Of a stretch of 64,000 bases of DNA, positions 51,590 to 56,870 are shown in pieces. The notes under the pieces are model-generated. The model was not told the origin of the DNA. It saw only the letters and a list, made by a program, of their open reading frames with translations, and searched no databases. This DNA comes from Gammaproteobacteria bacterium. Its GTDB lineage: Bacteria > Pseudomonadota > Gammaproteobacteria > Burkholderiales > Rhodocyclaceae. Numbering within the stretch: position 1 is the stretch's first letter; each line of letters opens with the position of its first letter. Position numbers and translations under genes: made by a program. The DNA lies in the NCBI GenBank assembly GCA_018828385.1, contig JAHJVE010000009.1, positions 36,910 to 100,909 of the forward strand, given 5' to 3'.

Positions 51590-52321
51590 ATGCCCCCACT
51601 CCACGCCCTGATCTTCGACGTTGACGGCACGCTCGCCGACACCGAGCGCGACGGCCATCGCCCCGCCTTCAACCACGCCTTCGCCGATCTCGGGCTGGAC
51701 TGGCATTGGGACGAAAGGCTGTACGGCGAACTCCTTGCCATCACCGGCGGCAAGGAACGCATCCGCCACTACGCCGCCCGCCACGCCCCCGCCATCGCCG
51801 CCCGGCCCGAATTCGAAGTGCTCGTCCGCGAGTTGCACGCCGCCAAGACCCGCCACTACCTGCGCCTCGTCGACTCCGGCAGCCTGCCGCTGCGCCCCGG
51901 CGTCGCCGCGCTCATCCAGCACGCCCGCCAGCGCGGCCTGCGCCTCGCCATCGCCACCACGACCACCCCGGAAAACGTCACCGCGCTGCTCCACGCCACG
52001 CTCGGGCCGGACGCCCCGGGCTGGTTCGAAATCATCGGCGCCGGCGACATCGTGCCCAACAAGAAGCCGGCCCCCGACATCTACCGCTGGGTCCTCGACC
52101 GCCTCGCCCTGCCGGCCGACAACTGCCTGGCCATCGAAGACTCCGCCAACGGCCTGGACGCCGCCCGCGCCGCCGGCCTGCGCTGCCTCGTCACGCCCAA
52201 CGACTACACCGCCGGCGACGACTTCAGCGGCGCCTGGCAGGTGCTGGCCGACCTGCGCGAGATCGATCTCGACGCCTTAGCCGCCCCGGAAATTTCAAAA
52301 TTGGCCGAAATTTCCGGTTGA
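51590..52321 (+). CDS. cbbY: CbbY HAD-IA phosphatase
   Basis: ALIFDVDGTLADTERDGHR.AFN, KKPAPDIY, AIEDSANG; adjacent to cbb operon. Confidence 0.9.
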   Translation: MPPLHALIFDVDGTLADTERDGHRPAFNHAFADLGLDWHWDERLYGELLAITGGKERIRHYAARHAPAIAARPEFEVLVRELHAAKTRHYLRLVDSGSLPLRPGVAALIQHARQRGLRLAIATTTTPENVTALLHATLGPDAPGWFEIIGAGDIVPNKKPAPDIYRWVLDRLALPADNCLAIEDSANGLDAARAAGLRCLVTPNDYTAGDDFSGAWQVLADLREIDLDALAAPEISKLAEISG

Positions 52322-52327
52322 CCGTAT
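52291..52327 (+). repeat. Dispersed TTGACCGT motif (supplies cbbY stop codon)
   Basis: AATTTCAAAATTGGCCGAAATTTCCGGTTGACCGTAT. Confidence 0.88.
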
Positions 52328-52756: not shown

Positions 52757-52795
52757 GTCGGAGCGGCGGGAAGCCCCGACGCCAAGGGGCGGGGG

Positions 52796-52832
52796 GATTT
52801 CAAAATTGGCTGTTTTTTCCGGTTGACCGTGG
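52796..52832 (+). repeat. Dispersed TTGACCGT motif (intergenic)
   Basis: GATTTCAAAATTGGCTGTTTTTTCCGGTTGACCGTGG. Confidence 0.9.
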
Positions 52833-52863
52833 GAAGCCTGGTTAACCGGAAAATCAAAGACGT

Positions 52864-52906: not shown

Positions 52907-52975
52907 TCAAGCGGCTTTTTTCAACGGCTCGTTATCGTGCTTGCTGGCGCTCAAAACCTCGATGCCAACAACATG
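52907..52975 (-). pseudogene. 3' remnant of a DUF2283-like gene truncated by repeat copy A
   Basis: Translates HVVGIEVLSASKHDNEPLKKAA*, like the DUF2283 C-terminus (GxVVGIEIL.AS); 5' part replaced by the repeat. Confidence 0.55.
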
Positions 52976-53009
52976 AATAAAGGGGGATAGACCACGGTTT
53001 CTGCGTCTT
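52975..53009 (+). repeat. GGGACAGACCACGG-family repeat, copy A
   Basis: GAATAAAGGGGGATAGACCACGGTTTCTGCGTCTT; 34/35 identical to 54281-54315. Confidence 0.85.
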
Positions 53010-53014
53010 GGCGC

Positions 53015-53629
53015 TCATGGCAAGGACTTAGGGATAGGAATTTCATCCCATGTCAAAACTTCCTCACCGTCGGCTCCCTCGTGGAACTTCAGGTTCTTGA
53101 CCGGGCGCGCTAACAAGAATGGATTGTGCCCACAGGTAATTCGGCCGCCCCACTCAACATCGCCGATTTTGATGTACTGGGCTGGGTATGGGTTGTCGGC
53201 TCTGTGGCGAGCATAGGTAATTTTCTCGTGCAGAGAATATAGGAGATCAACGTAGAGTTGCTCCACATGTTCCAACACTCGGCCGCTTGAGATGCGGTAG
53301 CCCAGAATGGAAACAATTCTCTCGCTCTGCCGCTTTGGAGGAGACGTGCCTTCCCATGTAACAAGCCACGCGGCACCGAGCTTTCGTTTCGGGAATGGAT
53401 TCGGCTGGAAGCGCTTAATCTTCTCAACCTGCTCTTCAATAAATTCTTTCGTCACCCCTTGTTGTTTCAACCATCGCCTTGCTTCCCGGACGACAGCATT
53501 GAACGTAGCGCCCTCACGGAGCGCTAGATGAAGCATTTTTTCAGCGCGCGTGTGATCCTTCGGGTGACTCCCGAACGTTGCAGTCATGCCAGCAAAGCAG
53601 CCAGGAACTTTATCTTTCCAAGTGACCAT
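53015..53629 (-). CDS. Orphan protein in integron cassette (204 aa)
   Basis: Starts 15 nt after the GTTGGGC core site; lower GC; no promoter space. Confidence 0.75.
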   Translation of the reverse strand: MVTWKDKVPGCFAGMTATFGSHPKDHTRAEKMLHLALREGATFNAVVREARRWLKQQGVTKEFIEEQVEKIKRFQPNPFPKRKLGAAWLVTWEGTSPPKRQSERIVSILGYRISSGRVLEHVEQLYVDLLYSLHEKITYARHRADNPYPAQYIKIGDVEWGGRITCGHNPFLLARPVKNLKFHEGADGEEVLTWDEIPIPKSLP

Positions 53630-53638
53630 GATTAAGAC

Positions 53639-53704
53639 GCCCAACGTGGAGCTAAGCTGACTGCGCGGCTTTTCGCGCAGGTCCGATTGAGCGCTTCGTT
53701 ATGC
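53639..53704 (-). mobile_element. Integron attC recombination site (66 bp)
   Basis: Minus strand GCATAAC-5nt-GCTCAATC...CTGCGCG-AAAAGC-CGCGCAG...GCTTAGC-5nt-GTTGGGC: R, L boxes, extra-helical C, central hairpin. Confidence 0.85.
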
Positions 53705-54203
53705 GCTTTGTTTCAGTGGATTTTTCAGATGCGACAGCCTCAGGGTGTTCTGCTCGATTGCATGCACCAGCGAGATGGCCGCAAATTGATGCAATAACTT
53801 TACCTAACAGAACTGCGTCGTCAAATTTTGCGGATCGCTTCATAGACGTAAATGACTTACCGAGCGGACTACCAATCTTCGTTATGTCACTTTCAGTGAT
53901 TGTTTTGTTCAACTCATGTGCGCATAAATTGCGAAGTTTATTAAGGTTGCGGAGGGCTGAAATGATTGAGTCTGGAATGAAATCGAGCGATTCGATAAGA
54001 ACAAGTTTTTGGTGATAAGTGAGGTTCCCGTTTTCGATAATCTTGTCACCTCGTGGGAGTTTTACGATTAAGAGACGCTCCAACAAGTTTTCCGAAAATA
54101 AGTGCGCCCTTAAAACGCGCATTGTTGGATCGCTTTCCGCACCAATTACTTTCTCAAACCGTTCAAACTCTTTCTGTTTGGCAATTTTCTCGAATTCATC
54201 CAT
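53652..54203 (-). CDS. HEPN/MtlR-like protein in integron cassette (183 aa)
   Basis: VLRAHLFSENLL...LNKLRNLCAH (RX4H motif); reads into attC; low GC. Confidence 0.7.
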   Translation of the reverse strand: MDEFEKIAKQKEFERFEKVIGAESDPTMRVLRAHLFSENLLERLLIVKLPRGDKIIENGNLTYHQKLVLIESLDFIPDSIISALRNLNKLRNLCAHELNKTITESDITKIGSPLGKSFTSMKRSAKFDDAVLLGKVIASICGHLAGACNRAEHPEAVASEKSTETKRITKRSIGPARKAAQSA

Positions 54204-54227
54204 TTGTAGTGCTCGGTGATTTATGGG

Positions 54228-54268
54228 GCATAACGTTGAAAATAACCGGCGCCGCGCCGGAAAGGTTG
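54228..54268 (-). mobile_element. Truncated attC (L boxes and R' core retained, outer box lost)
   Basis: Minus strand CTCAACC...GGTTATT-TTCAAC-GTTATGC; GTTATGC is the exact complement of the cassette's GCATAAC box. Confidence 0.7.
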
Positions 54269-54280
54269 AGAAAACGACGG

Positions 54281-54412
54281 GAATAAAGGGGGACAGACCA
54301 CGGTTTCTGCGTCTTTCGAAAATCGGAAATCGTGGTCTGTCCCTTATTGTTCGCTTCTTATTGTTCGCTTATTGTTCGCGCGAAAATTAGAAATCGTGGT
54401 TTTCACCATATT
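54281..54412. repeat. GGGACAGACCACGG-family repeat, copy B: hairpin, 3x TTATTGTTCGC and a degenerate inverted copy
   Basis: 54281-54315 direct copy; AAATCGTGGTCTGTCCCTTATT inverted at 54327-54348; 11-mers at 54344, 54358, 54369; AAATCGTGGTTTTCACC at 54391. Confidence 0.85.
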
Positions 54413-54435
54413 TTGTTGGGGTTTTGAGCAACCTG

Positions 54436-54882
54436 TCAATCATCGCTATACAGTTCGTATCTTCCGGTCATTATGTTTTCCTTTGCTTGGTCTATCCGAT
54501 CCTGGTATATAACCAAAACTGAATTGTCGGAAAGGTTTCTCAGGGCCGCAGCAAAGAAATAATTCTGATTCGCCTCGAACTCGACAGGGAGGTATATGGG
54601 GAATATTCCACCATGAAGCTTGTATTCGTAATGGCCAGGCGGCACTTCAAGATAACCATATTCACCGGTATTCAAAGAGATTTTGGGTTGTCCCTTGATT
54701 TCAAAATTAACATCTGATGCAGCACCGATGATGCCGGTTTTTAATTGGTAAACATAAATTCCTGCCATCCCATCATTCGGCTTCCGGAAATTTGAGATCG
54801 TATCTAAATTTAAATCTCTGTATGGCGTTACCGTACAACCCGTTACGGTAAGCAAGCTTAATATAATTAATAAAAATTTCAT
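54436..54882 (-). CDS. Low-GC lipoprotein (DUF2846-like)
   Basis: Lipobox VTGC; GIYVY, LNTGEYGYLEVPPGHY; DUF call is inference. Confidence 0.7.
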   Translation of the reverse strand: MKFLLIILSLLTVTGCTVTPYRDLNLDTISNFRKPNDGMAGIYVYQLKTGIIGAASDVNFEIKGQPKISLNTGEYGYLEVPPGHYEYKLHGGIFPIYLPVEFEANQNYFFAAALRNLSDNSVLVIYQDRIDQAKENIMTGRYELYSDD

Positions 54883-54896
54883 TTAGTATTTCTGAT

Positions 54897-54926
54897 ATGA
54901 ATAATTGGGACAAACCACGGTTTCTG
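54897..54926 (+). repeat. GGGACAGACCACGG-family repeat, copy C
   Basis: ATGAATAATTGGGACAAACCACGGTTTCTG. Confidence 0.75.
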
Positions 54927-55030
54927 TCCGTGGAATTCTCGGGCGACAAGCCGGACAGTATGAATTTTTGGCCCGGATTGCAAATGGCATTTGTCGCGCA
55001 GCTTTTGGCCTTGCTTGAACGGCCCGGCTG

Positions 55031-55067
55031 GATTTCATTTTTGGCTGTTTTTTCCGGTTGACCGTAG
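55031..55067 (+). repeat. Dispersed TTGACCGT motif (intergenic)
   Basis: GATTTCATTTTTGGCTGTTTTTTCCGGTTGACCGTAG. Confidence 0.9.
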
Positions 55068-55074
55068 CACTGCG

Positions 55075-56727: not shown

Positions 56728-56825
56728 GGCAGAGGGCGGCGATCTGGCTGCTCCCCCTTTATGTCCGGCAAGGACGGTATCCACCGGGGCAAAGGGCCGG
56801 GGATGGTTTTTGGTGTTTGCCAAAC

Positions 56826-56862
56826 CATTTCATTTTTGGCCGTTTTTTCCGGTTGACCGTAG
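56826..56862 (+). repeat. Dispersed TTGACCGT motif (intergenic)
   Basis: CATTTCATTTTTGGCCGTTTTTTCCGGTTGACCGTAG. Confidence 0.9.
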
Positions 56863-56870
56863 CAATCACC

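Follow-up and report, generated by a model that had tools for sequence, protein, structure and literature searches.

Here we describe a small islet of integron cassettes in the genome of a member of the Rhodocyclaceae (Gammaproteobacteria bacterium, assembly GCA_018828385.1) that ends on both sides at copies of a short repeat, called M in the following. The stretch of DNA analyzed, hereafter the window, comprises 64,000 nucleotides (contig JAHJVE010000009.1, positions 36,910 to 100,909 of the forward strand), and positions given without a contig refer to it; other genomes are designated by G numbers and contigs by C numbers. The neighbors of the islet are cbbY and a small gene on the left and yihY/BrkB on the right. 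A trough in GC content (40-53%, flanks ~61-67%) holds three open reading frames (ORFs), all on the minus strand: 53015-53629 (204 amino acids, gene 1), 53652-54203 (183 amino acids, gene 2), and 54436-54882 (148 amino acids). Genes 1 and 2 can be regarded as bona fide integron cassettes, each with an intact attC site elsewhere.

The two cassettes are separated by the complete attC site of cassette 2 (66 nt, 53639-53704, minus strand), with GCATAAC as R'' and GTTGGGC as R'. The site was recognized by two covariance models: R1, made from three attC sites of the genome's own integron on contig C19, with the window site left out, and R2, made from 47 attC sites in arrays of this genus. It gave 41.4 bits with R1 (E = 2e-10), as the sole match below an E value of 0.2 in the 64 kb, and 58.4 bits with R2 (genome-wide E = 6e-10); 13 of the 15 modelled pairs are standard. 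In Rfam, no attC family matched the window, and the only matches were chance miRNA-like ones to the M hairpin. The block GGACCTGCGCGAAAAGCCGCGCAG is common to the window site and to attC 8 of the C19 integron, and the window attC belongs to the same family as the sites of the resident integron. That integron (C19:16161-23000) consists of an intact intI (TIGR02249, 483 bits versus a cut-off of 265, no stops), an attI region in which GTTATGC is present, and an array of ~10 attC sites, which fall into three or four structural types. Across the genome, R2 matched the C19 array, two sites on C3, and the window site. The two sites on C3 (46.5 and 28 bits) form a second integrase-free cluster (C3:35600-36800), whose first cassette start, …TGTTGGGCGTCTTAACACC-ATG, closely resembles that of the 204-amino-acid cassette and whose second cassette encodes, as judged by eye, a DUF4145/HEPN-like protein.

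Cassette 1 (53003-53644, minus strand) starts with TTGGGCGTCTTAATC-ATG, contains the 204-amino-acid ORF (53629-53015), and continues with GCGCCAAGAC and the GC of R''. Its protein was assigned to no family, but homologues of up to 91% identity are present in many metagenomes and in a Nitrosomonas metagenome-assembled genome (MAG). In five independent contexts the gene-1 cassette reads (previous attC …G)TTGGGCGTCTTAATC-ATG … stop-GCGCCAAGAC-GCC(C/T)AAC-attC; the homologues have the same 5' boundary and an intact attC 10 nt past the stop codon. Cassette 2 (53645-54233, minus strand) starts with TTATGC and contains the ORF 54203-53652, whose 3' end runs into the attC. Read on the minus strand, the cassette start G|TTATGC (54234-54228) complements the cassette's own R'' (GCATAAC) exactly; a homologue of gene 2 (64%) with the identical overlap of ORF and attC is the first cassette beside a divergent intI in an integron of the Burkholderiales. 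The gene-2 protein is HEPN-like and has an Rx4H motif (RNLCAH); matches in Pfam and PADLOC (Csm6 HEPN, DUF4145, RiboL-PSP, and Abi_2) were weak and all below threshold. We see in it a candidate RNase toxin or abortive-infection protein; no partner gene accompanies it in the cassette.

Closer inspection of the two outer ends revealed that both were cut within attC sites. Ahead of cassette 2 lies a 53-nt 3' remnant of the preceding attC (54228-54280, minus strand) that retains part of the variable loop, L', and R' (GTTATGC) and lacks R'' and L''; it gave only 13 bits with R2 and, to judge from its sequence, should be non-functional. The intact homologue in an array of G018 has 38 further nucleotides, with TTCTAAC as R'' and GCTCAAC as L'', ahead of the common CCGTCGTTT; in place of those 38 nt, the window has the repeat flank …GTCCCCCTTTATTC. 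Cassette 1, which starts G|TTGGGC, has lost its own attC. After gene 1 the sequence is stop-GCGCCAAGACGC|AGAAACCGTGGTCTATCCCCCTTTATTC, so that the attC ends 2 nt into R'' and M follows, tail first, with CGC common to both partners; the junction may also be read as stop-GCGCCAAGACGC|AGAAACCGTGG..., whereas the five homologues continue with R'' and attC. Both cuts abut the same 35-nt arm of M in the same orientation, and the outer halves of both attC sites are gone. Neither outer junction is a G|TT integrase crossover, since one lies in the variable loop of an attC and the other 2 nt into R''. Microhomology is present at both, AAGACGC at one and GTnGTT at the other.

The repeat itself occurs at the locus in several forms. 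Arm A is single (52975-53009, plus strand) and consists of the flank GAATAAAGG, the core GGGATAGACCACGGTTTCTGCG, and TCTT; its tail, GGTTT, meets the remnant of the cassette-1 attC at 53003-53005. Copy B is a doublet resembling a miniature inverted-repeat transposable element (MITE) or a REPIN, a hairpin-forming doublet of repetitive extragenic palindromic (REP) sequences (54281-54349): left arm 54281-54315, a loop, right arm 54326-54343, and then TTATTG. It is followed by three tandem 11/14-mers, CTTATTGTTCG(CTT), and a decayed duplicate of the right arm at 54381-54412 (together 54343-54412). Arm C, a single arm of the GGGACAAACC variant (54898-54926, plus strand; copy C itself 54907-54926), is inverted with respect to the decayed arm (54389-54402). 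A and the left arm of B are identical at 34 of 35 positions, the likeness extends to 43 nt at 91%, and the two are spaced by 1306 nt. A DNA fold of −20.6 kcal/mol was calculated for the hairpin 54290-54343 (z = −6.5, reached by 0 of 200 shuffles); the single arms A and C have no fold of their own, so that only doublet B is a hairpin. With a 14-mer of M and up to two mismatches, six matches were found in the window compared to 0.41 expected, four of them at this locus.

Just 5' of the head of M, 8 to 13 nt are tandemly doubled or tripled, with a sequence that differs from locus to locus (AAAACAATAATAG ×3, GGAACCATCG ×3). The duplication is seen here at 54343-54381 and in many genomes (…AACAATAATAG ×3, …GAAATAG ×2), and it looks like stuttering at a nick or insertion site. 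The genome's only other M arm, on C8, adjoins an insertion of the IS4 family. This multi-copy insertion sequence (IS), with a 489-amino-acid DDE_Tnp_1 transposase and the left end GAATGGCGCTAAGTTAAGC…, interrupts the assembly at four contig ends (C8:34320-34477, the end of C22, the start of C10, and C3:1-1600). It is joined directly to the head of the M arm on C8 (…GTGGTCTGTCCC|GAATGG) and to an M-like head on C22 (…AACAATAGGGGTCAGTCCT|GAATGG), which may reflect a target preference.

The third gene of the islet, between the head ends of two M elements, encodes a lipoprotein of the DUF2846 family (54436-54882, minus strand; PF11008, 2e-10). It was considered as a further cassette and set aside as not demonstrated: its homologues lie in islands beside P4-type integrases or IS1595, and no attC was found with them. 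The gene is accessory cargo, unrelated to the cassettes.

A profile search of the window's contig gave no match to a tyrosine recombinase or a Y1 transposase, and no remnant of intI was found there. An intI beside attI and an array, as in a complete integron, is present on C19, not in the window. By the definitions of IntegronFinder, an attC cluster with no integrase (CALIN) has at least two attC within ~4 kb and no nearby intI, and only one attC of the window passes the genus-trained models. Because only one attC is intact, the islet is a single attC lacking an integrase (SALIN) rather than a CALIN. The anatomy given in a preliminary description of this DNA, which was made from the letters alone, is borne out by these data: the complete attC, which passed with 41 to 58 bits in the two models; three co-oriented genes of low GC content; the core of the upstream cassette complementing its own GCATAAC, as can be read directly; an upstream attC cut at copy B and a downstream cassette with copy A in place of its attC; direct repeats of 35 bp with one mismatch that enclose the two cassettes; and a window free of intI and transposase genes. 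The term integrase-free used there is valid for the window only; for the genome it is not, in view of the intact intI on C19.

To see what M is, we turn to other genomes, which were searched with a 17-mer (GGGACAGACCACGGTTT, at most one mismatch). M was present in 63 of 151 genomes of the family (46 of 89 genera) and in 40 of 61 genomes of the genus, at 1 to 16 copies per genome, and a reversed control gave almost none. Its forms are the hairpin doublet, the single arm, and a pair of inverted arms that lie 10 to 60 nt from each end of a gene for a protein of ~237 amino acids. This protein matches Y1_Tnp (PF01797, E = 2.7e-13) and, in NCBIfam, the REP-associated tyrosine transposase (RAYT) model with 71 bits (equivalog cut-off 80), compared to 24 bits for IS200. 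Inverted M arms at such a gene were seen in at least 15 genomes, including the congener G125 and a gammaproteobacterial MAG of the Halieaceae; among them are G153, G074, G062 (two loci), G071, G052, G110, G105, G155, G173, G005, G200, G011, and G185. In other genomes, M thus forms the cognate flanks, in inverted orientation, of a Y1 transposase gene of the RAYT type, and the assignment of the repeat family to an HUH/Y1 (RAYT-like) transposase in the preliminary description was correct. In 185,579 species genomes, the arm of the A/B type was found only as a RAYT flank in the Halieaceae MAG, and no second unit of M, cassette, and M was found. The A-side junction had no match in metagenomes, and a search for the junction of cassette and M gave two chance matches within an unrelated ORF.

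In G042, which belongs to another genus, a 6.5-kb island (C1:684000-693000) has nine M arms interleaved with toxin-antitoxin modules (PemK, PIN plus a MazE-type protein, DUF1902 plus HicA, RHH, HicA, and BrnA); searches for attC in the island and for a RAYT in that genome gave nothing. A presumed array of four direct M-like motifs in G110 (C1:15000-29000; GCATTTTTG-GGGACAGACCACGGT[T/A]T-TCATCG, spacing 3-3.9 kb) was discarded, since it reflects the shared 3' end of paralogous genes: three of the motifs lie just past a shared, ~90% identical 1.6-kb 3' portion of paralogous large genes, and the fourth shares only ~35 nt around the motif. The word thus has a different use there.

In the genus of the window, M recurs in or beside the R'' box of attC sites, or at the distal edge of cassette clusters. 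Six of 29 M loci in a genus sample flank a RAYT gene; of the remaining 23, six have an attC within 1.5 kb, compared to ~0.2 matches expected by chance at ~2.4 attC per Mb. Each of the two M copies of G134 is located within an integron array, at distances of 5 and 77 nt from an attC; G125 has, besides the arms at its RAYT gene, three M arms, all of them 48 to 770 nt from solitary attC sites (two loci); and in G086, M lies within a cluster of four attC sites. M is also at the edge of a cassette cluster in G153. The junctions can be given to the base pair. In the last array cassette of G001, G003, and G195, the sequence is GTCTAA|AAACAACGG-M-GGTTT|ATACC-TTCCAGCCGACC (or, in another notation, GTCTAA|…M…|ATACC-TTCCAGCC), with M replacing the end of R'' and the spacer and L'' following it. 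The junction of G190 reads GCCTAA|AAACAATAG-M, a second one of G195 reads ATCTAAC-ATTGC-ACC|AATAATAG-M, followed by REP2, a second repeat described below, and that of G125 reads attC-ATTCC-(AAAACAATAATAG)×3-M; in G134, M stands 4 nt ahead of R''. The distal cassette shared by three species (G003:C31, G001:C10, and G195:C29; SAM-methyltransferase-like by eye, 92-95% DNA identity) has the same decaying M arm in its attC in all three, and this junction of M and attC is therefore old and vertically inherited. An M-free version of the methyltransferase cassette of G001 and G003 was not found; in four other species the gene is a plain chromosomal one with no attC. M was also considered as a general attC-associated repeat and dismissed, since an attC was present at only 2 of 43 M loci from other genera and at none in G110, G057, G074, or G062.

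The islet lies in an interval that varies from strain to strain. Its left edge is a copy of REP2 (…TTTTTCCGGTTGACCGT; 52790-52838, plus strand), which is 88% identical to 55025-55065 and at which the alignments of G001 and G003 stop (52832-52834). The homology of G001 restarts at 54952 and that of G003 at the second REP2 copy (55025-55069, plus strand), which forms the right edge for the latter. Between the cbbY side and yihY, the alignments of G001, G003, and G007 all differ. G001 has here a GNAT gene flanked by a decayed M arm and an M doublet, and also a contig break; G003 has 1.7 kb of other genes, without M. The interval is thus a strain-variable hot spot bounded by two REP2 copies, and no attC or intI was found at this site in 18 congeners aligned across it. 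REP2 is abundant: its core (…ATTTCAAAATTGGC…TTTTTCCGGTTGACCGT) occurs 277 times exactly and 547 times with at most one mismatch in the 4.3-Mb genome (control, 4). Two further copies lie in the window (52286-52325 and 56810-56865), one is inside the C19 array, another adjoins the start of the cluster on C3, and REP2 is present inside the integron arrays of congeners too; no Y1/RAYT gene is detectable in the genome of the window. The abundant REP of this genome is therefore REP2, and M, with its two loci, was ruled out for that role.

How does the islet relate to systems already described? Like the SALINs and CALINs of IntegronFinder (Cury 2016, Néron 2022, Loot 2023), it has real cassettes and attC far from intI, and the genome has a complete integron of the same attC family. 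It differs in that its ends fall within attC sites, where they meet a transposon-type repeat, and not at crossover points or at IS or intI remnants, and in that only one attC is intact. Insertion of cassettes at secondary sites (attC x attG) leaves G|WT junctions and a complete 3' attC (Loot et al., bioRxiv 10.1101/2022.09.11.507474).

M resembles the REP/REPIN-RAYT systems (Nunvar 2010; Bertels & Rainey 2011; Ton-Hoang 2012; Bertels 2017, PMC5581495; Corneloup 2021, PMC8266576) in its palindromic doublet, in the inverted pair at a Y1 gene, and in a conserved A-rich/TAG-type motif 5' of the arm. In contrast to them, M has 1 to 16 copies per genome (five arms in the genome of the window) where those repeats have tens to hundreds; the gene is flanked by single arms and not by whole palindromes; several copies of the gene are present in some genomes, as with an IS; M is found beside cargo genes and attC; and the protein stays under the equivalog cut-off. 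The inverted flank is seen in other genomes only, and the genome of the window has neither a cognate RAYT nor a high copy number of M. The low copy number is similar to that of Group 1 RAYTs, whose flanking word has ~12 occurrences per replicon (Bertels 2017, PMC5581495). With regard to palindrome-associated transposable elements of the IS200/IS605 type, the direct arms A and B are present, the single arms are unfolded, and no further copy or junction was seen among the collections searched.

Elements of the IS1111-attC group and group IIC-attC introns reportedly insert in or beside attC sites, inactivate them, and so fix cassettes. M is likewise found repeatedly in or beside attC. The enzyme connected with M is a Y1 HUH protein, however, and not a DEDD transposase or a reverse transcriptase, and M stands on the R'' side rather than on the R'/L' side; attC targeting by M is putative, as no pair of empty and filled sites was found. 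Integron mobilization units are said to consist of integron DNA bracketed by MITEs. Class 1 integrons of Acinetobacter are bracketed in this way; the MITEs derive from IS elements with DDE transposases, enclose whole integrons including intI, and generate target-site duplications. The likeness is that integron-derived DNA, away from the platform on which it originated, is enclosed by short repeats that are non-autonomous, the difference that M is RAYT-associated and cuts through attC sites. No description of a RAYT-type repeat that cuts attC and brackets cassettes was found in the literature searched.

We consider it probable, with some reservation, that the islet is a two-cassette fragment of an array, frozen at a resident M hairpin beside the DUF2846 gene in a strain-variable interval. 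An integron integrase made the cassettes and at one time moved them; both genes are ordinary cassettes elsewhere. The anatomy of the islet, the nature of its cassettes, the breakpoints, the link of M with RAYT, and the variability of the locus are demonstrated, and from them we infer the order of events and the enzyme. M elements may have inserted into attC sites within a donor array, or a break may have occurred in a resident M hairpin; one recombination at M would have put the fragment beside the resident M doublet, and this event would have duplicated the M arm. The recombination may have been the integration of a circle or an exchange between M copies, possibly RecA-mediated, from a donor array with M in two attC sites; it is also imaginable that microhomology led to an insertion at a broken M hairpin by which one arm was duplicated, or that a RAYT catalyzed a single-strand transfer in an ancestor. 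The loss of the outer halves of both attC sites is explained more simply by one recombination than by two separate deletions, each with its start exactly at a boundary of M.

Several observations speak against this model. TCTT, the 4 nt common to A and B, is cassette-derived in A and requires a coincidence or microhomology in B. The public collections searched yielded neither a donor array nor an empty site, a circle junction, or a second copy of the unit. The attC models, which started from a three-sequence seed followed by model-guided realignment, are genus-trained and may miss foreign types of attC. Furthermore, the association of M with attC is lineage-limited and could partly reflect co-accumulation in accessory DNA: G110, G057, G074, and G062 (11 to 15 M and 2 to 57 attC each) have no M near attC. 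The orientation of M relative to the cassettes also varies among genomes.

Three other explanations have to be weighed. The islet could be an active composite element, with the direct M arms serving as IS200/IS605-type ends and a RAYT acting in trans to excise single-stranded circles, re-insert them, and capture pieces of arrays. Y1 transposases such as those of IS608 and ISDra2 act on same-strand ends, for which direct repeats are expected, and the association of M with Y1/RAYT genes, its recurrence at the R'' boxes of attC, the other M-flanked cargo of G001 at the same site, and the island of G042 would all be consistent with such an element. But Y1 enzymes bind hairpins, whereas the single arms do not fold and only the doublet does; the arms at RAYT genes are inverted, not direct; the genome, which is 99.55% complete, has no Y1 transposase as judged by PF01797 or a RAYT protein, and it contains an intact intI; M, with four arms here and one on C8, has only two loci; public collections yielded no second copy of M, cargo, and M, nor its junction; and the M-richest genomes show no link of M and attC. 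We therefore regard an active element as unlikely. Much less likely still is the integrase as sole agent, by which IntI put a circle of two cassettes at a secondary site (attC x attG) and later, unrelated M insertions and deletions eroded the ends. An intact IntI is available in the genome, SALINs and small CALINs are common and can arise in this way, and C3 has a further small attC cluster. Such an insertion, however, leaves a complete 3' attC and no upstream remnant, whereas cassette 2 is preceded here by 53 nt of a foreign attC and no 3' attC is left; neither outer junction is at the G|TT crossover (G|WT for attC x attG); and two extra deletions would be needed, each ending exactly at an identical M arm.

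The same low standing, or a shade lower, has to be given to decay in situ, i.e., an ancestral integron at this place that lost intI, attI, and most of its cassettes. CALINs are thought to arise partly in this manner (Cury et al. 2016, PMC4889954), and degraded integrons do exist in the genus, as in G003 with an intI fragment containing a stop codon and one attC. But the contig has no remnant of intI, the integron of the genus is located elsewhere (on C19 here), and 0 of the 18 aligned congeners have attC or intI at the site. Of these readings, we prefer the array fragment frozen at a resident M hairpin.

In this model the unit is probably immobile now, since a Y1 transposase is lacking from the genome and no more than one attC is intact. 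That attC could still pair with attI or another attC via the resident IntI. The proposal in the preliminary description that a RAYT acts in trans here finds no counterpart in the genome. Its idea that variable gene arrays are built at a fixed locus fared better in part: the interval is variable and has other M-flanked cargo, the GNAT gene, in G001, but excision by a RAYT stays conjecture. A genome-wide link of the repeats with foreign cargo does not extend beyond two M loci in this genome; at the same time, the attC was recognized, the locus is not invariant among relatives, and an association with foreign cargo is not altogether lacking. A causal role of M and RAYT in mobilizing cassettes is, in our view, rather unlikely. 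Equally tentative is the wider proposal that M with its RAYT joins the IS1111-attC insertion sequences and the group IIC-attC introns as a third class of mobile elements associated with attC. In this scenario, a Y1 element would enter the R'' side of a folded attC and cap and freeze the terminal cassettes, and recombination between copies of M would carry array fragments and toxin-antitoxin modules to new sites, seeding SALINs and CALINs without an integrase.

The origin of integrase-free cassette clusters is debated, with integron decay, transposon-mediated rearrangement, and attC x attG insertion as the ways considered. The locus described here gives, at the level of base pairs, the breakpoints of a fourth pattern, in which each end falls within an attC site and continues directly into a RAYT-associated palindrome. 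In several species of the genus, this repeat also marks cassette clusters at their distal edge. Should the link not be causal, the islet would be an ordinary SALIN that has decayed in a hot spot of recombination. If it is causal, RAYT-type elements, which are generally regarded as domesticated and cargo-free, would gain a role in moving cargo, and there would be a new route by which cassettes become fixed outside integrons.

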